Positions 22,132 through 64,000 of a stretch of DNA of 64,000 nucleotides are shown piece by piece. Made by a program: the position numbers and the translations under genes. The stretch's first letter is position 1. Every line of letters starts with the position of its first letter. Below the pieces are notes generated by a model. The model saw only the letters and a program-made list of their open reading frames with translations, searched no databases and was not told the DNA's origin. Source of the DNA: Candidatus Saccharimonadota bacterium (GTDB lineage Bacteria; Patescibacteriota; Saccharimonadia; UBA4664); the NCBI GenBank assembly GCA_019352195.1, contig JACAFG010000003.1, positions 956 to 64,955 of the forward strand, given 5' to 3'.

Positions 22132-25014
22132 TCAGGCGATGACTTCATCGCCTGAGGTTGACGCCAGACTGCGGTCAAGAGCTTCGAGACCGTCCCTCAG
22201 CGTCTCGAGATAGAACGATCGGCCGGGCGCCGTCTTGCGCACGGCAACCGTGTAGGCATTGGCTAGGCGGGCCACCGCACCTTTGCCGTAGAGCTTTTTG
22301 GCCGCACGATACCGCTCGAGCAGGGCTGCGGCGTCGATTGGAGCCACCGACTCAGCAGTTGCTGGTGCTTCAACCGCGTGCAGTTTCGTACGTTTGCCCT
22401 CACTGATGGGCGTAACGGCGGCTAGGCTTGGTGTGATGCTATCCACCGGGGCCGGGTCCAACCGTTTGATACCATCCGGCAAAACCATGATGGACACTGA
22501 TGCCCCTGCCCGATTGCGCTTCCACTCGATGAGGCCAGCTTCGTTGAGCTCGTCCAGAATGAGTTTCAGCCACGCTTTGGGCAGACCGACGTCGGCGGAT
22601 AGGCTGTCCACCCGAGACACCAGCATTTGGTCGTAGATGGTTTGGAGCACGACCAGTTCGCAGGCCCCGGCAATATCGGCAAAAATGCCGCCGATGATAT
22701 CGGGAGTCAGTAGCTGGCCGGACTTGCCAAGTTCGGCGAGATGAGCCGATGCAGCGCGGGACAAGCGAGCCGGGGCCAGCTCGTAGAAGACGTCTCCCGC
22801 CGGTAGCAGTTCGATCGAGATCTGCCGGTTGCCCACCAGAGTCCGGCTGATGTAGCCTATCGCCTGCATCAGGCGAAGGACATCATTGGTAACCGACGAG
22901 TTGCTGCCAAGCTCGATGATCCGGGTCAGGGCTGAGCCATTGAGCTCTTTGCCGCCACGACCGCCGCAGGCCTTGAGGACGGCAATGATGCGGCGCATGC
23001 GCTTGGCATCATCGGTGCCAAGCAGGGCTCCCCCAGGCGTAGCGGACGAAGGCTCGACCGCTGCTTTGGGTTCGGTCTTGGTTTCGACCGGCCGCGCTGG
23101 ACCACACATGGCGGTCAGCAGGGCGCGAGACGGCAGGTTGGCAACAACACCCACCGCGGTGGTGCTGACGAGCCGCAGGGGCGTTGGCCCGGTGCCGTGC
23201 ACTGCTGGCACGGCGACGGCTGCGTCTGCGGTTGGTGAGGAGGCGAGGACCGCGACCTCGGCCGGAGCCGATGCCACTGGCTCCGGAACTGGCCGAGAGG
23301 CATCATCGGTGAGCACCGCTTCGATGGTCTTAAACGTGCTGGCACCATCTTCTTCTTCACCGACCGGTACTGCCGCCACGATCTCGTCGACTGGTTCGCC
23401 GGCGATCAGCTCCTCACTATCGGGCGGGAGTACGGCGCTGAGTTCGATCTCAGCATCGGGCTCCGGCCGAGTTTGCGAATCGTCCGGCGCTTCGGCGGGG
23501 ACTGTGGTCGGGGCCGGCAAAACCGGCGGCGCCACTTCGGGCGCAGCGGCAACTGGTTGCGGACGCTCGACGGCCTTGGTAGCCGGCTGGAAATCGTAGG
23601 CCACGATCGTTGGCACGTTACCAACTGGCTCGATCCGTAGCAGATTGCCCTGCGAAGCAACAAACTTCTGCCACAGATCCTTTTGAGTACCTCCATGACG
23701 TGAATTGCGGCTGCGACGCGTTGATGGCACAAAATGCAGTTGGGTGTAGATGAGCGCAAGGTTGGCGCTATCAAGCACCAAGCCTGCTTTGCCCTCTCGT
23801 ATGGCGGTATCGAACAACCGCTTGAGAGCAGATTGGCGCTGATGATCTATCACTGCCGGCTCCTCTGGTGTGGATTGGCGATGAACGGATGGACGCAGCC
23901 GATCGGCGGCGGGTTGTGCAAGGTGAGGCACGGCCTCTACTGTTGCCGTGGCCGCGTCTTGGGTGGTAGCGGTTTTGACTGCAACGGGCCGTGGTCGGCA
24001 TTCAACCAGCGTCGGGCCGTAATGGAAGCCGGTGATGATCAGGTTGCCGACGCTGTCGGTGCTGCCGATTAAGCGCTCCGCCTCAACTTCGCCGGCGATA
24101 AACCGGTCGAGCTGGGCAGTTGCCGAGTCGGTAGCACTTCGGACGAAGTCGAGCTTACTTGCCAAGCCGGTTTTCGTGGCCAGACCGATTACATAGCCGC
24201 CGGTGACGTCGGCGAAGGCATCGCCGAGAATTTCGGCGAGCAATTGCTGACGCTCGGCCAACGTCGTGGTTGAAACCGGGCCTCGGTAGAACGCTCGCGA
24301 ACTGGGCGGAGGCGTGAAGCTGGGAGCAAAGCTGTAGCTTGCTGGCGGTACGTTGCCCGCCTGAACTTCGCTCCTTGACCCATTGAGGCTGGTCTTGTCG
24401 GCGCCTGCCGGTAGGTCGACCATGACGTGGGCGCTGGGATCGACGCAATCAGTGACGTCGCCCGCAGCAGTCAGCGTGACCCGTCCTGCAGCGGCCTCGG
24501 CGGCTAGCCACTGCGTTAAATCAGTGACTGACGGCGCGAGGAATATTCCGCTGTAAAACCACAACTCGTCGGCCAGATCGGGGTCGGGCGTGAGATGGCT
24601 ATCACCACCAACATGCATATCGACCATCAGGTTGAACAGCTTGCGGCGGCGGTCGAGGTCTGACATGGCAAGCGCCTCACCGGACGGCCTACCGCTCTCG
24701 TTGGTCCGCCTGGCCGAATTGAATATCGGACTCAGCTTTAGTCTTCGCCGTTCGCGCTCGCTCAGACCGCCCCAAATGCCGAAGCGTTCGTCATTCCTAA
24801 GCGCCGCTGATAGGCACGCGGAGCGCACTTCACAGCCAATACAGATCTTTTTGGCGTCTCGGGTTGAACCGCCTTTTTCCGGGAAAAAAGCGTCAGGGTC
24901 GGTTTGAGCACATAAGGCGCGCTCGAGCCAGTTTGCGTCGTCGCCGATGAGGTCGGACTCAGTGTCCAAGTCGGGCAAAGAATCATCGACGCTGACATCA
25001 TTTGAAGTTGTCAT
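22132..25014 (-). CDS. WhiB-like (Wbl) [4Fe-4S] domain fused to an 860-aa low-complexity Ala/Pro-rich extension
   Basis: Residues about 25-95 read WLERALCAQTDPDAFFPEKGGSTRDAKKICIGCEVRSACLSAALRNDERFGIWGGLSERERRRL. This has the four conserved Cys and the G(I/V)WGG turn of WhiB. One continuous 960-aa ORF at about 62% GC. The opposite-strand ORFs are fragmented. Confidence 0.7.
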   Translation of the reverse strand: MTTSNDVSVDDSLPDLDTESDLIGDDANWLERALCAQTDPDAFFPEKGGSTRDAKKICIGCEVRSACLSAALRNDERFGIWGGLSERERRRLKLSPIFNSARRTNESGRPSGEALAMSDLDRRRKLFNLMVDMHVGGDSHLTPDPDLADELWFYSGIFLAPSVTDLTQWLAAEAAAGRVTLTAAGDVTDCVDPSAHVMVDLPAGADKTSLNGSRSEVQAGNVPPASYSFAPSFTPPPSSRAFYRGPVSTTTLAERQQLLAEILGDAFADVTGGYVIGLATKTGLASKLDFVRSATDSATAQLDRFIAGEVEAERLIGSTDSVGNLIITGFHYGPTLVECRPRPVAVKTATTQDAATATVEAVPHLAQPAADRLRPSVHRQSTPEEPAVIDHQRQSALKRLFDTAIREGKAGLVLDSANLALIYTQLHFVPSTRRSRNSRHGGTQKDLWQKFVASQGNLLRIEPVGNVPTIVAYDFQPATKAVERPQPVAAAPEVAPPVLPAPTTVPAEAPDDSQTRPEPDAEIELSAVLPPDSEELIAGEPVDEIVAAVPVGEEEDGASTFKTIEAVLTDDASRPVPEPVASAPAEVAVLASSPTADAAVAVPAVHGTGPTPLRLVSTTAVGVVANLPSRALLTAMCGPARPVETKTEPKAAVEPSSATPGGALLGTDDAKRMRRIIAVLKACGGRGGKELNGSALTRIIELGSNSSVTNDVLRLMQAIGYISRTLVGNRQISIELLPAGDVFYELAPARLSRAASAHLAELGKSGQLLTPDIIGGIFADIAGACELVVLQTIYDQMLVSRVDSLSADVGLPKAWLKLILDELNEAGLIEWKRNRAGASVSIMVLPDGIKRLDPAPVDSITPSLAAVTPISEGKRTKLHAVEAPATAESVAPIDAAALLERYRAAKKLYGKGAVARLANAYTVAVRKTAPGRSFYLETLRDGLEALDRSLASTSGDEVIA

Positions 25015-51260: not shown

Positions 51261-51824
51261 CTAAACTGAGCGATCGTTGCCCAGCGTTGTATGGATGTCG
51301 CCTTCCGATACGCCTGGGTCGCGGCCACTTAGGCCCAAAATCTTAGCCGATACGTCGGCGTCATCTGAAACTGGTACGACGGGACCAACCGCATCGGAGT
51401 TGGCCAGTTGGTATGCCCGTGGCAGCATAAAGTCATAGGCAAACTGCACTACTTTGGGGTCCATCACTTGGCTGCGGCCAAGTGCGCCGTTGAGATCCCA
51501 TAAGTGCAGCAAACGGTCGCCCGTCTGCGCCGCTAGACTGGTCGCCATAGTCTCGTCGGCAGTTTCGGCTAGTTCTTCGGCGGCTTCGGCAATTTCAGTC
51601 CAGCGCTCGGCGGGCTCTTCGCCCAGCACGTCGGTACCTGGTTCCGCTGTCATGTGCGCGCCTTCGGTGAGGGACAAATTATTGAGCGCCACGTGGTTTA
51701 CGAGCTCGCGCACACTCCAATCAGGCGTGCTGGGGACCATCTCTTCCCATTGTTCATCATCAATCATATTTACCGCATCGGTAAAAGCCTGATCGGCTCG
51801 TAAAAACATTTCCGCTTCGCGCAT
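51261..51824 (-). CDS. DinB_2 / mycothiol-maleylpyruvate-isomerase N-terminal-domain (TIGR03086-like) protein
   Basis: WSVRELVNHVALNNL... LLHLWDLNGALG... The four-helix DinB-like N-domain is typical of actinobacterial TIGR03086 proteins. Assigned from memory of the family. Confidence 0.45.
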   Translation of the reverse strand: MREAEMFLRADQAFTDAVNMIDDEQWEEMVPSTPDWSVRELVNHVALNNLSLTEGAHMTAEPGTDVLGEEPAERWTEIAEAAEELAETADETMATSLAAQTGDRLLHLWDLNGALGRSQVMDPKVVQFAYDFMLPRAYQLANSDAVGPVVPVSDDADVSAKILGLSGRDPGVSEGDIHTTLGNDRSV

Positions 51825-57443: not shown

Positions 57444-57691
57444 TTTAAAACTCCTTTAATTGTTCCAATCCAGATGGCTGATCGCAAACTGCGATGTGGC
57501 CTTCGAGCTGGCGGGCCAGCAATCTGCCTTGGAACGAACAGTTAATCTATAAGTTGCTCAAGCATAAAAAGATGCCCGAAAAGGACCCTCGTATTATACG
57601 GAAAACGACCGTGCTTTGTAAAGGGTTTGGGGCTTTAAAACGAAGAAGCCGCCGACAAAATGTCAGCGGCTGGTGAAATGATGGTCCGGGC

Positions 57692-57732
57692 GGCCCATCG
57701 AGTGTCCGGGGGGGGTAGACTCTCGATGGGCC
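57692..57732. repeat. 15-bp-stem hairpin (ggcccatcgagtgtc / gactctcgatgggcc, loop cggggggggta) in the fusA-tuf spacer
   Basis: Read directly; one mismatch in the stem. Confidence 0.5.
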
Positions 57733-57893
57733 GCTGGGCTAGCCAACATAGCCGCGGCGGTGGCGGTTGGACTAGCAGACGATACGAGTAGGACGTGCCA
57801 GGTGGATCGGTGGGATCCATGGGCACCTGTGTTCAGGTCCAGTCGTATCGTTGTGGGCTGCGCGTCGGAAGCGCAGCCGGCAGGGAAGTTTGT

Positions 57894-57936
57894 GGACCGG
57901 CTGCCTACAATTACGTAGGTTGCTGGCAGCCGGTCC
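57894..57936. repeat. REP-like 13-bp inverted repeat tggaccggctgcc ... ggcagccggtcca. The GGCAGCCGG core recurs at 57872, 58134 and, inverted, 58192
   Basis: Read directly from the sequence. Confidence 0.5.
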
Positions 57937-58778
57937 AGAGAAGGACGATCCAGCATGGACCGAACTTCTGGGGAGAGAAGCGGCCTGAGAGGCCGTCTAG
58001 CGCTTCGAGCAGGTGGGCGTCACCCGTGCGAAGGTGCAGCCAAAGGCCGCCTCTCTCACCCGATGGACGCAGCAGAGCCGGCATAGCTCAACTGTATCCG
58101 TTTGTGGGGCACTGGCATTTAAGCCAGAAGTCGGGCAGCCGGGTCGCATGAAACGGCCCATTCGAAAGTTAATTCGTGGCCCTCGGTGGAGCCCGGCTGC
58201 CTTATTTCAGAGAACAGTAGATCAGCCCAGCGCAATGCCGTTCCGCCACCTGACTAACGACGTCCAAAATCCAGCCCAGAACTGCTGGTTTGCCTGTGCG
58301 GGGAATTCGGGAGTATCGTCTCTCTGAAAAAGCCTAAGGTCTATTTACAAACGAGTGGTCAAAGTGCATTTCTACAAAACAATTTGGCTTTCGCTTACGT
58401 TGCTTTGTAATTTCTATAGTACTCCGCTCAATTTTGAGCGTCAACCAGTAAAACCACGGGTAATACTATGTATTTATTATACATTTTTTACACTTCTTTG
58501 TCAAGGTACGATTAATGCCTTGGCTAAGCTTAAATCGCCTATAACTCTCGTGCTTGCTTATCGTCGCAATTATCGCCTGGCCATATTAGTGAAAACACCC
58601 CAGACGCTTGTCTAGGGTGTTTTCACTAACTTCGGGTTGCCTCTCTATCCTTGTCCCCGGCTTTATCCGGCAAGCGTAACAAGACGACGAGGCGAAAGGG
58701 CTCAGGAGTTGCGCCGGCGAGATTGGCCTATCGACAGACAATACGGAGCGGACGAGAACCGTAGCAGGTCGGGTTAAG

Positions 58779-60860
58779 TTACGCTTTGGCGGCCGCGCGC
58801 TTACCGATAATTTCTTCGGCAACGTTACGAGGGACTTCCTCGTAATGGTCGAACTCCATCGTGTTAGAGCCACGACCTTGGGTCATCGATCGCAATTGAG
58901 TGGTGTAGCCAAACATCTCGGCGAGCGGAACAAAGGCATCGATAACCTTGGCATTACCTCGGTCTTCCATTTTTTCGATGCGGCCGCGCTTAGAGTTGAG
59001 GTCGCCAATGACATCACCCATAAACTCTTCGGCCACCACTACTTCTACCTTCATAATGGGCTCGAGGATGATTGGGTCAGCGAGCTTAGCAGCAGCTTGG
59101 AAAGCCATAGAGCCGGCAATTTTGAAGGCCATTTCGTTGGAGTCGACGTCGTGGAACGATCCATCGTAAATGCGGGCCTTGATGTCCACCATGGGGAAAC
59201 CGGCTGAAATACCGTTTTGCATGGCTTCTTTGACGCCGTCTTCGGTTGGCTTGATGAACTCGCGAGGTACGACTCCGCCGACGATGCCATTTTCCCACTC
59301 GTAACCGCCGCCCGGCTCCATTGGTGTCAGCTCGATCCAAACGTCGCCGTACTGGCCACGACCACCACTCTGGCGGACGAACTTACCTTGGGCCTTGGCA
59401 GCCTTCTTGATGGTCTCGCGGTAGGCGACCTGAGGCTTACCGACGTTAGCTTCAACCTTAAACTCACGCTTCATGCGGTCGACGAGAATGTCGAGGTGGA
59501 GTTCACCCATACCTTCGAGGATGGTCTGGTTGGTCTGCTCGTCGGTGTGGACGCGGAAGGTCGGGTCTTCTTCGCCGAGGCGCTGAAGAGCATTACCCAT
59601 TTTCTCTTGGTCGCTCTTGGTCTTTGGTTCAACGGCAATTGAGATAACCGGCTCAGGGAAGACAATTGATTCCAGAATAACCGGCTTGTCGACGTCACTA
59701 ATGGTGTTGCCGGTGGTCGTATTTTTAAGACCTACAGCAGCGGCAATTTCACCGGCGTGGACTTCTTGGACTTCTTCGCGGTCGTTGGCGTGCATGAGCA
59801 CGATTCGGCCGACGCGCTCGCGTTCGCCCGTGGAGGCGTTTAAGACGTAAGAACCACTCTTGAGAATACCCGAGTAAACCCGGAAGAAAGCCAGCTTACC
59901 AATGAACGGATCGGTGGCAATCTTGAAGGCTAGGCCCGAGAAAGGCTCCACATCGTCGGGCTTGCGCTCGAGCTCGGCGCCGGTCTTGGGATCGGTACCA
60001 AAGACGGGCCCAATGTCGATTGGGCTCGGCAAGAAGTCGTTAACGGCGTCTAAGAGCTTTTCAACGATTACGCCGCGACCATCGCCACCTGATACGGCAA
60101 AGAAGGTACCGGTGAGTACGCTCTTACGAATGCAGAGTTTAATTTCGTCAATGCTCAGCTCTTCGCCGTTCAAGTACTTTTCCAAAATGGCATCATCGGC
60201 TTCGACCGCGTTTTCGATGAGATGGCTGCGATAGTTAGTGGCTTTTTCGAGCATGTCGGCCGGGATCTCGCCTTCAATGAGCTCGTGATCGTGATATTCC
60301 TTGTAGGTGTAGGCTTTCATTTCGATGAGGTCGATGATGCCGTTGATTTCCTGCTCAAAACCGATCGGGAGGTGGATTGGGTAGGCGCGCTTACTTAAGC
60401 GCTCGTGAATTGAGTCCAAAGACTTGTAGAAGTCGCCGCCGGTTTGGTTGATCTTGTTGATAAAGCAGATGCGCGGGACGCCGTACTTGTCGGCCTGGCG
60501 CCAAACGGTCTCAGACTGAGGCTCCACGCCCATTTTACCGTCAAAAATGGTGACTGCACCGTCGAGCACGCGCAAGGAACGCTCGACTTCAACCGTAAAG
60601 TCGATGTGACCAGGCGTATCGATGATGTTGATACGCTTGCCCTTCCAAAAACAGGTAGTGGCAGCCGAGGTAATGGTGATGCCACGCTCTTGTTCTTGCT
60701 CCATCCAGTCCATGGTGGCTTCACCCTGGTGAACTTCACCAATTTTGTGGGTCTTACCGGTGCGATACAAAATACCCTCAGTGGTCGTCGTTTTACCGGC
60801 GTCAATATGAGCAATAATACCTACGTTACGAGTGTTTTCGAGAGAGTATTCACGGGCCAT
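58779..60860 (-). CDS. fusA: elongation factor G
   Basis: [20 protein letters not shown]. 693 aa. Confidence 0.95.
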
Positions 60861-61097: not shown

Positions 61098-61313
61098 ATG
61101 AAGTGCAAGAATAGGAATAAGGGCTGTCATAATAATGGCTCGATGGCCAATGACGGCTACTGCGGACCATGCCACAGGAGAGCCTCTCCGACTGACAAAA
61201 GTGCTGCCAGAGCCCTTGGTGAGCTGTTCACCGCTCAGGCCCGCCAGGCCCGCGACAACAACACCACGTTCGGCCTCACTCCTCGACCGGCGCAGTCCAA
61301 GCGGTGGTGGTAA
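61098..61313 (+). CDS. small zinc-ribbon-like protein (MKCKNRNKGCHNNGSMANDGYCGPCH...)
   Basis: A CxxxxxC...CxxC arrangement. RBS GAGGAA before the ATG. The track ORF begins 13 codons earlier. Confidence 0.4.
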   Translation: MKCKNRNKGCHNNGSMANDGYCGPCHRRASPTDKSAARALGELFTAQARQARDNNTTFGLTPRPAQSKRWW

Positions 61314-61458
61314 CTGTAGTCACTTGGGCGCGTTTGCGTCATGACCGGCTCGCCGCTCGTTGTTCTTCCGTTCTTCGCCAACCCTGAGCTCCGGCTCGTT
61401 TTGGCAGCCCCGTCACTGTAATGGTGACGGGGTGATTTGTTTGTTAGTGATGATGGTT

Positions 61459-62375
61459 ACCCTGAATCTAAAAACCCCACCCCATCTGATATCCCAACAA
61501 GATCAGTACGTCATGCAACATGTAGCCGTCCCGGCTCCGCGGAAAAGAGCTGACTAAGTTTAGGTGTTCTTTCAGATAGTCAAAGGTGCATTCAACTTTC
61601 ACCCGGGCCGCCAGGAGCTTCTGTTGCCATCGGGCCATAACCTGGGCTTTCTGTTTGTAGTGAACGGGCGCCACTACGATGACACCCTGGTCTCGCCAGA
61701 GTCGTTTGCGGGCGATCTTATCACCGTAGTGGCTATCGCCGACCACGATCTTCGTCTCTGACCGTACCAGCCGGGGTGTAACGTGCCCGTCGTAGACATC
61801 GGCCGGTGTAAAGGTGACATTGCTGAGTCGTCCCTCCAGATCGACCGCAGCATGGATCTCAAATCCAAACCAGGCTCCTTGCCAGTTGTAGCCCCAGCCA
61901 GCGAGGCCAGCGGCGACTTTGTAGCGGTTCTGCCGGTGATCACGACACACCGGCAGTTTGGTGGAGTCCACCAGCCGCACTTCGGCCGGAACCAAGGGCT
62001 GCCCGAGGAGCTGGGGCAGCTTCGGCAACAGCCGGTGACAATGGGCCACAAATGCTCCATACGTACCAAGCTGTGGTACATCCGGATGATGGTACAGAAG
62101 GGCCCATTTGAAGATATCCTTGAGAGTACGCTGACAAGTATTAGAAAGACAGTTCCAGATGAGGAGGGTGATGATTTCACTGTTACGAGCCAGTTTGAGC
62201 CGGCCACCCTTCGGGCGGGCCGGCTCCGAAACGGTGTCGTCTATGACCACAAATAATCTACGATATGATGAGGCTGCAAAGAGCGCCTTTGGTATTCCTT
62301 GTTTGTGTTACAACTACAAGCTTACCAAGGCGCTTTTGCTTTGTTAACGGGTAATGAGGTTTTTAGATTCAGGGT
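61459..62375 (-). mobile_element. IS982-family insertion sequence (917 bp) with perfect 18-bp terminal inverted repeats ACCCTGAATCTAAAAACC
   Basis: Left IR 61459-61476 and right IR 62358-62375 are exact reverse complements. A single transposase ORF lies inside and ends within the IR. Confidence 0.8.
61468..62250 (-). CDS. IS982-family DDE transposase
   Basis: VDSTKLPVC ... FEIHAAVDLEGRL ... KVECTFDYLK. The DDE triad spacing and the C-terminal LLGYQ motif are typical of IS982. Confidence 0.75.
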   Translation of the reverse strand: MVIDDTVSEPARPKGGRLKLARNSEIITLLIWNCLSNTCQRTLKDIFKWALLYHHPDVPQLGTYGAFVAHCHRLLPKLPQLLGQPLVPAEVRLVDSTKLPVCRDHRQNRYKVAAGLAGWGYNWQGAWFGFEIHAAVDLEGRLSNVTFTPADVYDGHVTPRLVRSETKIVVGDSHYGDKIARKRLWRDQGVIVVAPVHYKQKAQVMARWQQKLLAARVKVECTFDYLKEHLNLVSSFPRSRDGYMLHDVLILLGYQMGWGF

Positions 62376-62465
62376 GGATATTGTTGATTTATTGCATCAT
62401 TCGTGGTATTAATTGCCTATCTCACGATTTACTCATGATCCACTCACCTTTGGAAAGGCCTACTT

Positions 62466-62888
62466 ATGAGTACACCGGGGGAGCTCCCCACAACTAGTAC
62501 CGATGAGATTCTCATCGTGGAAGCTGCCGGCATTCTCGGAGTCTCCACCGGCACCGTTTATTCCATGGTTCGGGACGGGCGCCTCATTCGCCGCACCAAT
62601 TCGCATGGTGGCCTGGTCTTCGTGCGCTCAGAGCTCGAAGCCACCCGGCTTGATCGCGACGAGCGAGCGCATGTCGATACCATCAGGGACAATTTGCCGG
62701 ACAGCCTCAGGGTTGCCCATGCCAAACTGCCGCGTACCACGATCTCCCCAGTGAGGTGGGCACCGAACGGTGACTACTCGAGCCTTCGTCTACCCAAAAT
62801 GATCTGGCGTACTGGGATGCCAGTGCCAGTATTTCTGCCGTCGTGCGGCGGCTCGAAAGGAATAGGTCATGAACGATCTCTCGTATAG
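62466..62888 (+). CDS. excisionase/MerR-type HTH (HTH_17) DNA-binding protein, paralog 1 (140 aa)
   Basis: ILIVEAAGILGVSTGTVYSMVRDGRLIRR. Confidence 0.6.
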   Translation: MSTPGELPTTSTDEILIVEAAGILGVSTGTVYSMVRDGRLIRRTNSHGGLVFVRSELEATRLDRDERAHVDTIRDNLPDSLRVAHAKLPRTTISPVRWAPNGDYSSLRLPKMIWRTGMPVPVFLPSCGGSKGIGHERSLV

Positions 62889-63093
62889 CGAAAATCTGCT
62901 CACTCCCGGTGAAGTGGCCTTATTGTTTCGGGTCGACCCCAAAACGGTCTCTCGTTGGGCCGCGGCCGGCCGCATTGGCTGCATCCGGACGCCCGGCGGA
63001 CATCGGCGTTTCCGTGAGAGTGAGGTCAACGCCTTGTTGGCCGTGCGTTTGAAGGGAGCAGCAGACGATGGATGCCAACTCGCCCCCGTCTGA
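62869..63093 (+). CDS. BldC-like small MerR-family regulator (HTH_17), paralog 2 (74 aa)
   Basis: LLTPGEVALLFRVDPKTVSRWAAAGRIGCIRTPGGHRRFRESEVNALLA closely matches the Streptomyces BldC core as I recall it (LLTPAEVATMFRVDPKTVTRWAKAGKL..IRTLGGHRRYREAEV). Confidence 0.6.
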   Translation: MNDLSYSENLLTPGEVALLFRVDPKTVSRWAAAGRIGCIRTPGGHRRFRESEVNALLAVRLKGAADDGCQLAPV

Positions 63094-63307
63094 TGACTAC
63101 GATTTTTTGACCACCACAGAAGCGGCCACAATCCTCCGAGTGAGCAAGGCCACCATCTGGCGTTTGATTGACTCGGGCCGGATGAAGGCTTATCGCGTTC
63201 GTCGATCCTGGCGTATTTCGCGAGCCGACCTCGAGGATTTCATCAAAGTCGGCCTGCACGATCCAGATAACGATCCCACTACGGCGTACGGAACGAGACA
63301 CTCATGA
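63068..63307 (+). CDS. excisionase-family HTH (HTH_17) DNA-binding protein, paralog 3 (79 aa)
   Basis: FLTTTEAATILRVSKATIWRLIDSGRMKAYRVRRSWRISRADLEDFIK. Confidence 0.65.
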   Translation: MDANSPPSDDYDFLTTTEAATILRVSKATIWRLIDSGRMKAYRVRRSWRISRADLEDFIKVGLHDPDNDPTTAYGTRHS

Positions 63308-63504
63308 CAAACCACACGTACTTGCCTGGGTGTTATCAAGAGACGCGCCTCACACCTGATCGTGGCGAAATTTCCATCATGTTCATGGCACGTCGCGGCC
63401 GTGAACCGCTGATAATGTGGCTCACTGCACTGTCTCGTCGTTGTTCCGAGGCAGAATGTTCGAACTTTTGTCCGGCCTCAGCCTGGTTTTGTTCCGTCCA
63501 CTAG
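63304..63504 (+). CDS. small Cys-rich ORF (66 aa) overlapping paralog 3 by ATGA
   Basis: Its position in the tightly overlapping cluster is the only support. Confidence 0.2.
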   Translation: MTNHTYLPGCYQETRLTPDRGEISIMFMARRGREPLIMWLTALSRRCSEAECSNFCPASAWFCSVH

Positions 63505-63567
63505 CTCTACGAGCTGTTGCCGCCGTCTGGCGCGTTGAACCAACGCCTCAGGCGGCGGTTCTTCGTT

Positions 63568-64000
63568 TTAGAGGCCAGCCGAACGTTGCGCCAGCTCGCC
63601 TGACAGCTTGTCGTAACCGCTCACCGTCATACACAAGATGACGTCACCGGCTTTAGCATCAGCAATAACCGTCTCAACGAGTTTGGCGCGGTCGGGCTCG
63701 TATGTTGTTGAGGCGCCAATGCCAGTTGCTACATCGGCTCCGCTAACCGAGGCTTCTTGCCCCGCTTCGCGCGCGCCTTCAATACCCGTGATATATGCTT
63801 TGTCGGCTTCGCCGAAGGCGTGCTGAAACTCGTGCAACAGCGTTTTGGTACGAGAATAGGTGTGAGGGCGGAAAATTGCGACAACTCGCCGACCGGCAAA
63901 ATGCAGTTTGGCCGCCTGAATGGTAGCCGCCACTTCAGTGGGGTGATGCGCGTAGTCATCGATAACGGTAACGGGTGACGTGGGCATCGAAACCACATTG
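63568..64000 (-). CDS. murC: Mur ligase C-terminal domain (MurC-like); N-terminus lies beyond the window end
   Basis: [20 protein letters not shown]...[19 protein letters not shown]...[13 protein letters not shown] matches the C-terminal domain pattern of UDP-N-acetylmuramate-L-alanine ligase. Confidence 0.6.

Follow-up and report, generated by a model that had tools for sequence, protein, structure and literature searches.

The question raised by this locus is what three overlapping genes for small helix-turn-helix proteins, one of them resembling the Streptomyces developmental regulator BldC, are doing in the chromosome of a Saccharibacterium. The genes, open reading frames (ORFs) 1 to 3, lie on the plus strand near the end of a 64,000-nucleotide stretch (hereafter the window) of contig JACAFG010000003.1, which belongs to the Candidatus Saccharimonadota bacterium assembly GCA_019352195.1 and was read from positions 956 to 64,955. 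To our knowledge, the regulation of transcription in the reduced genomes of Saccharibacteria is poorly known. We conclude that the trio is probably a chromosomal operon of small single-domain winged-helix regulators of the MerR/Xis class (HTH_17), and that its middle gene is a BldC acquired anciently from an actinobacterium.

ORF2 (62869–63093, plus strand; 74 aa) had been described in the initial annotation as BldC-like, and our analysis raised this to full membership of the BldC family of single winged-helix regulators. The NCBIfam model HTH_BldC (NF033787) scored ORF2 at 99.5 bits against a cut-off of 77 and matched neither ORF1 nor ORF3, and a home-made BldC hidden Markov model (HMM) gave 124 bits for ORF2, 12 for ORF3 and 4.5 for ORF1. 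Searches against the BldC crystal structures returned 6AMA at E=9e-20 and 6AMK at E=4e-19. The protein consists of a single winged helix-turn-helix (wHTH) domain at residues 10–57, with no coiled-coil or effector domain; BldC-family proteins normally stand alone at 60–90 aa. It has been reported that BldC of S. venezuelae contacts DNA through two residues of its recognition helix, Lys26 and Arg30, through the wing residue His46, and also through Lys36 (PMC5859096). When these residues were mapped by eye on the 6AMA alignment, K25, R29 and H45 of ORF2 corresponded to K26, R30 and H46 of BldC, and K36 was replaced by R35. In the public annotation at NCBI the gene already goes under the name “BldC family transcriptional regulator”. 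Taken together, ORF2 agreed with BldC at every sequence-level criterion tested, and on this basis we class it as a true member of the family.

The relatives of ORF2 point to where the gene came from. Among the best 120 of 5,607 relatives, every named protein except the query was actinobacterial, and the names were Amycolatopsis, Nakamurella, Frankiaceae, Pseudonocardiaceae and Streptoalloteichus. Over a 49-aa core, ORF2 was 86–92% identical to the BldC proteins of Amycolatopsis, Nakamurella and Frankiaceae, with the value of 92% reached for Amycolatopsis; these actinobacterial proteins were 80–100% identical to one another and 78–80% identical to S. venezuelae BldC. The BldC-like copies carried by phages showed at most 61% identity to ORF2. 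By protein identity, ORF2 falls inside the actinobacterial diversity of BldC, a position not expected from vertical descent since the ribosomal proteins of the host are about equidistant from all phyla. The core proteins of the host do not look actinobacterial: the highest score of ribosomal protein L2 of this genome was to Firmicutes ribosomes (299 bits), with mycobacterial ribosomes reaching 264 bits, and its EF-Tu scored best with E. coli-type and reconstructed-ancestor sequences. An actinobacterial origin of ORF2, as the initial annotation had proposed, is strongly indicated by the identity of the core together with the non-actinobacterial L2.

At the DNA level the picture was different from that of the protein. 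ORF2 was 74–76% identical to the bldC genes of Amycolatopsis or Frankiaceae, different codons were used at 25 of 45 identical residues, and the GC content at third codon positions (GC3) was 0.71, matching the host, against 0.96 in Amycolatopsis. Because of this DNA identity, these codon changes and the host-like GC3, we infer that the transfer is old, that the DNA has been ameliorated, and that the protein has been held under purifying selection. Old, ameliorated DNA that encodes a conserved protein in turn makes recent contamination or misassembly unlikely. All three genes share the composition of the host (GC content 0.55–0.60, GC3 0.63–0.71). In Amycolatopsis and in a Frankiaceae metagenome-assembled genome (MAG), bldC is solitary and sits beside an AsnC-type regulator and genes of menaquinone or cytochrome-c biogenesis, with no HTH_17 neighbours. 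Transfer of the whole trio en bloc from an actinobacterial bldC locus was rejected for this reason, as bldC stands alone there.

We then asked how the three genes are related. The Pfam HTH_17 model (PF12728; cut-off 27 bits) matched ORF1 marginally at 28.7 bits, ORF2 at 49.3 and ORF3 at 63.5, and the claim of three consecutive HTH_17 genes therefore holds, for ORF1 only just. With the NCBIfam “excise” model TIGR01764 (cut-off 28.8), ORF2 (38.9) and ORF3 (61.4) passed and ORF1 (21.1) failed. An HMM built from single-domain HTH_17 proteins detected these three ORFs and nothing else in the window and the next 10 kb, and had no detection in 1.44 Mb of unrelated bacterial loci, so that the clustering is not due to chance. 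The description of the trio as a paralogous array did not survive comparison of its members: ORF2 and ORF3 gave no BLASTP alignment, and ORF1 and ORF3 aligned at 36% identity over 33 residues, which is not the picture of recent paralogs. As judged from these alignments, the three proteins share the superfamily fold only, and the trio appears to have been assembled from divergent members rather than duplicated in place.

ORF3 (63068–63307, plus strand; 79 aa) encodes a wHTH protein of the excisionase type. An AlphaFold2 model made with 36 distant homologues had a predicted local distance difference test score (pLDDT) above 90 over core residues 11–60 and a beta-alpha-alpha-beta-beta-alpha topology. 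Its best folds in the PDB were BldC (6AMA and 6AMK; root-mean-square deviation (rmsd) 1.1–1.6 Å), the Xis protein of mycobacteriophage Pukovnik (4J2N; 0.8–0.9 Å), the excisionase RdfS of an integrative and conjugative element (ICE; 8DGL), and RacA. The label “Xis/MerR-type” given to these genes is thus correct at the level of the fold. By sequence and modelled fold, ORF3 is an excisionase-type HTH_17 member that lacks the partner by which a functional recombination directionality factor (RDF) is defined. A word-indexed search of 5.8 billion protein clusters with ORF3 returned the query only, and in an exhaustive HMMER search that covered representatives of about 15 billion proteins, the nearest single-domain relatives other than ORF3 itself reached at most 58% identity. 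The top-scoring relatives of ORF3 were poly-wHTH proteins with 2–7 tandem HTH_17 repeats: 111 of the 150 top matches carried 2–7 HTH_17 stretches in one polypeptide.

ORF1 (62466–62888, plus strand; 140 aa) combines an N-terminal HTH_17-type helix-turn-helix (residues ~17–60) with an 80-residue tail of unknown fold. The helix-turn-helix itself is recognisable at residues 17–40, and the wing is weaker. Among the same 5.8e9 clusters the word-indexed search found only ORF1 itself, and there was no plasmid match. We considered a second, degenerate helix-turn-helix in the tail (“RWAPNG...LRLP” compared with “RWAAAG...IRTP” of BldC) and rejected it, as the home-made BldC HMM gave it only 3.4 bits. 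As far as the searches go, ORF1 and ORF3 appear to be lineage-specific HTH_17 proteins with no close relative among the ~15 billion proteins.

The reading frames themselves look genuine. The ORF listing, with four ORFs all on the plus strand, confirmed the overlaps that had been claimed for this cluster: 20 nt between ORF1 and ORF2, 26 nt between ORF2 and ORF3, and 4 nt between ORF3 and a fourth frame, ORF4. Successive ORFs occupy frames 0, +1 and +2. Purine-rich Shine-Dalgarno-like motifs precede each ATG in the sequence: GGAAAGG 7 nt upstream of ORF1, AAGGAA 9 nt upstream of ORF2, and GAAGGGAG 9 nt upstream of ORF3. These motifs and start codons agree with the N-termini of stand-alone homologues, and alternative in-frame starts of ORF1–3 would truncate the first strand or helix of the domain. 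Because each ORF has its own ATG and Shine-Dalgarno-like motif, and other starts would cut into the domain, the overlaps have the look of true translational coupling. We scored codon usage by a log-likelihood for which 16 long genes of the window served as training set; it was positive only in the annotated frames (0.07 for ORF1, 0.13 for ORF2 and 0.15 for ORF3), and the signal was concentrated over the HTH domains. In ORF1 the HTH half gave a clearly positive signal and the tail one close to zero.

The end of the cluster was examined next. ORF4 (63304–63504, plus strand) is a 66-aa open frame that overlaps ORF3 by ATGA, and the initial annotation had listed it as a fourth small, Cys-rich ORF. 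The open frame exists, but it had no family match in Pfam, NCBIfam, PHROGs or PADLOC and no tblastn match in phages, its codon log-likelihood was −0.21, between the in-frame and out-of-frame distributions, and it is absent from the gene calls of the public annotation. ORF4 is probably the 3′ untranslated region of the transcript. Beyond it, at 63519–63570 on the plus strand, a strong terminator-like hairpin of the intrinsic type followed by UUCUUCGUUUU separates ORF4 from the stop codon (63568) of murC, a convergent gene. The hairpin (63519–63559) folds as RNA at −39.8 kcal/mol (z = −3.5), with none of 200 shuffles as stable; a U-rich run comes after it, and its orientation is that of the plus strand. 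On the other side, an AT-rich leader of 90 nt (62376–62465, plus strand) precedes ORF1. An Rfam search of 52–64 kb returned nothing meaningful.

The operon that we favour would have come about and would work as follows. ORF2 would have come by horizontal transfer from an actinobacterial relative of the Pseudonocardiales, Frankiales or Nakamurellales, at a time so remote that its DNA has since adopted the composition of the host, while strong purifying selection kept the protein. The three genes would be co-transcribed from the AT-rich leader, with transcription ending at the hairpin, and translation of the overlapping genes would be coupled. Their products would serve as transcriptional or architectural regulators rather than as RDFs. 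By analogy with BldC, lambda Xis and RdfS, they may multimerise head-to-tail on AT-rich or direct-repeat DNA (PMC5859096, PMC11963761).

To place the trio in its surroundings, we read the gene order beyond the window from contig JABBYD010000024.1 (161 kb; GCA_017884045.1, Candidatus Saccharibacteria bacterium). The same order across the trio region was present in a 9.7-kb contig of the independent Logan assembly of run SRR11551193. Directly upstream of the leader lies an insertion sequence (IS) at 61459–62375 on the minus strand, whose transposase gene (61468–62250) encodes 260 aa. The element has terminal inverted repeats of 21 nt, 20 of them complementary, is present as a single copy, and ends right before the leader, in agreement with the IS982-like element that the initial annotation had placed next to the trio. 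The transposase matched Pfam DDE_Tnp_1_3 at 77.9 bits and NCBIfam IS982 (NF033520) at 117 bits against an equivalog cut-off of 130, with 26–29% identity to annotated IS982 transposases; by these scores it represents a distant member of the IS982 family. No target-site duplication was visible in its flanks (TGATGGTT versus GGATATTG). Farther out on this side come a strong 12-bp terminator hairpin (61407–61433) just before the IS, a 71-aa Cys-rich ORF (MKCKNRNKGCHNNGSMANDGYCGPCH...; 61098–61313, plus strand) and fusA (58779–60860, minus strand). The Cys-rich ORF has C-x6-C-x11-C-x2-C spacing, by eye reminiscent of A20-type zinc fingers, had no match in Pfam or NCBIfam, and its codon score was negative.

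On the downstream side murC is convergent to the trio, and past the window end follow a 98-aa ORF, an ABC-F ATPase gene, a NUDIX gene, two small ORFs, and then rpsG, rpsL and rpoC. The str operon is thus split, with rpsL-rpsG and fusA-tuf 8.4 kb apart and the trio inside the interruption of the rpsG-fusA junction; the IS982-like element may have taken part in this rearrangement. The initial annotation had left room for an integrase close beyond the window end. Over the following 10 kb we found murC, the ABC-F ATPase, the NUDIX gene, rpsG, rpsL and rpoC, and among the called genes within 10 kb on either side of the trio there was no Pfam match to an integrase, recombinase or relaxase. No tRNA was found within about 10 kb of the trio, and no long flanking direct repeats or att-like repeats in the scanned fusA–murC interval. 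We rejected an ordinary prophage with its integrase, because none lies within 10 kb and the phage BldC-like genes are far more distant than chromosomal ones. Elsewhere in the region, tuf and rpsJ are also separated, by five hypothetical ORFs with no Pfam match. Between tuf and fusA, 1.3 kb (57444–58778) are free of called genes, and no ORF there exceeds 120 aa; the GC content is about 0.60 and then drops to 0.43. An Rfam search of this interval gave chance miRNA matches only, and a decayed gene or an RNA not yet described are both conceivable here.

Several observations weigh against an operon of working regulators. The window contains no run of at least three BldC-type AATTNNNNC direct repeats at 9-bp spacing; the operator pattern of BldC consists of 9-bp AATTNNNN(C) direct repeats, and its absence is weak evidence, since BldC uses indirect readout. 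The candidate promoter in the leader, TTGATT-17 nt-TATTAA at 62384–62412, was read by eye only, and the consensus scanner, which accepts a −10 hexamer only if it ends in T, did not report the TATTAA site. The codon scores of ORF1–3 lie below those of housekeeping genes (0.17–0.50), ORF1 is only a marginal HTH_17 member with a weak coding signal in its 80-residue tail, and its single-sequence AlphaFold2 model was uninformative (pLDDT 35). No sister genome was found, the MurC search of genome contigs giving at most 37% identity among the matches listed. Finally, an IS next door, a broken str operon, low codon adaptation and two orphans are also what a decaying fragment of a mobile element would look like.

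This last point can be taken further. The trio might be the relic of an integrated phage, an ICE or an actinomycete ICE (AICE), namely its excision/regulation module, of the kind of Xis2c/Xis2d in CTnDOT or of a phage Xis with regulators, with the integrase and the rest lost, possibly by IS-mediated rearrangement. We consider such a relic unlikely, and it is the history to which many features of the locus could be fitted: the PHROG matches of the genes are to excisionase and “excisionase and transcriptional regulator” families, the closest ORF3-like proteins occur in mobile contexts (P0172 in a Mu-like prophage, P0123 beside TadE, AAA_30 and ParA), BldC-like genes are present in actinophages and on the phage-like contig L111, and the trio, with two of its three genes orphans and codon adaptation under the housekeeping level, lies next to an IS without target duplication inside the 8.4-kb interruption of the rpsG-fusA junction. 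Such a relic is, however, hard to square with surroundings that showed, for 10 kb to each side, neither an integrase, a relaxase or a tRNA nor long flanking direct repeats, or with an ORF2 far nearer to chromosomal actinobacterial BldC (86–92%) than to any phage copy (at most 61%). Moreover, the trio has the composition of the host genome, and synonymous turnover with a conserved protein implies long-term selection for function, not decay.

It is very unlikely that the ORFs are frameshifted pieces of one former multi-HTH_17 repeat gene, whether a pseudogene or a case of programmed frameshifting. Such an origin would account for the overlaps in frames 0, +1 and +2 and would fit the multi-domain build of 111 of the 150 top ORF3 matches, but each ORF has its own ATG and Shine-Dalgarno-like motif, ORF2 and ORF3 have N-terminal tails similar to the ones seen in stand-alone homologues, and proteins of the BldC family normally stand alone at 60–90 aa. 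In addition, the domains of the trio are too divergent for BLASTP, whereas the internal repeats of the multi-repeat proteins P0123 and P0124 are visibly similar. A role in anti-phage defence, as Mad1-like HTH proteins of the methylation-associated defence system (MADS) or as antitoxin-type regulators, seems to us highly improbable. All three proteins matched PADLOC mad1 (E from 3.6e-5 to 5e-11), ORF3 matched NCBIfam MADS1 (NF047737) at 34.4 bits and ORF1 had a weak Pfam match to AbiEi_4; against this, 34.4 bits is to be set beside an equivalog cut-off of 80, the mad1 matches cover the generic HTH only, and the neighbourhood has no MADS partner genes, nor any gene for a methyltransferase, a nuclease, a toxin or another defence function. 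We give just as little credence to an assembly or binning artefact, in which an actinobacterial fragment was misjoined into a Saccharibacteria contig at the IS. The 92% identity of ORF2 to Amycolatopsis BldC and the IS at one border of the trio could raise this suspicion, and both assemblies probably derive from the same reads. Nevertheless, the GC content of 0.55–0.60 and GC3 of 0.63–0.71 are host values and not those of a 70% GC actinobacterium, at the nucleotide level ORF2 and actinobacterial bldC agree at only about 75%, at the other border murC follows directly and there is no repeat, and two assemblers gave the same 9.7-kb structure inside a 161-kb contig.

One further gene of the window has actinobacterial traits, and a second possibly so. 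An ORF at 22132–25014 (minus strand; 960 aa) carries a WhiB domain at residues 29–92 (Pfam Whib, 84.3 bits), and this domain shares about 80% identity over 71 aa with the WhiB protein of S. venezuelae (PDB 8DY9_H, E=5.5e-36). The WhiB-like gene noticed in the initial annotation is thus real and actinobacterial-like. Some 870 residues after the domain had no Pfam match, and the public annotation makes one gene of the ORF, directly downstream of rpsI; for a non-actinobacterial genome it is unusual that a WhiB orthologue bears so long a fused extension. Exact look-ups of this fusion, of EF-Tu and of the transposase found this MAG and its Logan assembly only. The second gene encodes a 187-aa protein (51261–51824, minus strand) with precomputed Pfam matches to MDMPI_N and DinB_2. 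We take MDMPI_N to be the N-terminal domain of mycothiol maleylpyruvate isomerase, typical of Actinobacteria, and if so this protein is possibly another import from that phylum.

If our preferred reading of an operon of regulators with an imported BldC is right, the locus offers a concrete case in which regulators (BldC and WhiB), and not metabolic genes, passed from Actinobacteria to a Saccharibacterium and were retained. It would also be an instance from nature in which other wHTH proteins of the Xis class are encoded along with BldC, and an entry point to what BldC binds in a genome of about 1 Mb. Cultivated Saccharibacteria are epibionts on Actinobacteria (PMC10633639). A bolder idea, which we regard as quite improbable, is that the epibiont domesticated developmental regulators of its host's phylum, namely the BldC orthologue and the WhiB-type domain with its 870-aa extension, and that BldC and the two unrelated wHTH proteins co-assemble head-to-tail on DNA into a hetero-filament that would be the “split” equivalent of the multi-HTH_17 proteins. 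Were this true, the hetero-filament would be a combinatorial regulator for a genome poor in transcription factors, possibly tuned to signals that it shares with the actinobacterial host.

The initial annotation had called the array uncommon, which proved right in one respect and not in another. A second HTH_17 domain was found near a BldC relative in about 2 of 57 metagenome loci (L139 and L148), and no HTH_17 gene neighboured bldC in the Amycolatopsis or Frankiaceae loci, so that a separate HTH_17 gene beside BldC is rare. Fused tandem HTH_17 domains, on the other hand, are common, as the ORF3 matches illustrate, and adjacent Xis-type genes, Xis2c and Xis2d, are already described for CTnDOT (PMC3809561). 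Our literature search found no paper that links BldC or WhiB with genomes of Saccharibacteria or of CPR (Candidate Phyla Radiation) bacteria, or that names this assembly. Among the loci compared, metagenome contig L111 (Ga0134081_10006014, GC 0.47) carries at 545–730 a BldC-like gene of 61 aa that is 69% identical to ORF2 and shares the unusual KTVSRWAAAG and Cys positions with it, partly an ascertainment effect, as the locus was chosen by a peptide pattern derived from the query. This gene lies within small overlapping ORFs, by eye including DUF3310-like and LuxR-type HTH ones, and the region resembles an early region of a phage.

The closest known system is BldC of Streptomyces. Like it, ORF2 is a single-domain wHTH protein, with 73% identity to S. 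venezuelae BldC over the 49-aa core, and the mechanism described for BldC, cooperative head-to-tail multimers on AT-rich direct repeats (PMC5859096), would be expected for ORF2 by analogy. The two differ in their setting: the host of ORF2 is a Saccharibacterium, a CPR bacterium without a sporulation programme to regulate, and whereas actinobacterial BldC is solitary, ORF2 lies inside an overlapping three-gene operon with two other HTH_17 genes. ORF3 in turn shares its fold with the wHTH RDFs (Pukovnik Xis 4J2N, RdfS of ICEMlSym 8DGL, and lambda Xis; rmsd 0.8–1.3 Å) and is placed with them by Pfam and TIGR in one “excisionase” domain family. These RDFs oligomerise head-to-tail on DNA (PMC11963761). 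Unlike them, ORF3 has no cognate tyrosine or serine recombinase, att site or element borders within 10 kb.

For the arrangement as a whole there are two further comparisons. Described in general terms, the trio is like the Xis2c/Xis2d pair of CTnDOT in having at least two small Xis-type DNA-binding genes side by side in one operon. In that Bacteroides conjugative transposon, Xis2c and Xis2d are reportedly adjacent small excision proteins that also activate transfer genes. The CTnDOT operon belongs to a complete ICE with IntDOT and Exc, whereas no such element is present here. The multi-repeat HTH_17 proteins likewise place HTH_17 domains in series, six in P0123 and two in P0124; the gene of P0123 (L152, 5001–6197) neighbours TadE, AAA_30 and ParA-like genes, and its 80-kb contig probably represents a plasmid or ICE. 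Those proteins, however, are single polypeptides with similar internal repeats, and the trio consists of separate, mutually divergent genes. The advance is incremental, as the family, the fold and the likely mechanism were already known and the host and the arrangement are what is new. That HTH_17 domains occur in series was known before; the combination of three separate, divergent genes, with a bona fide BldC among them, is new.

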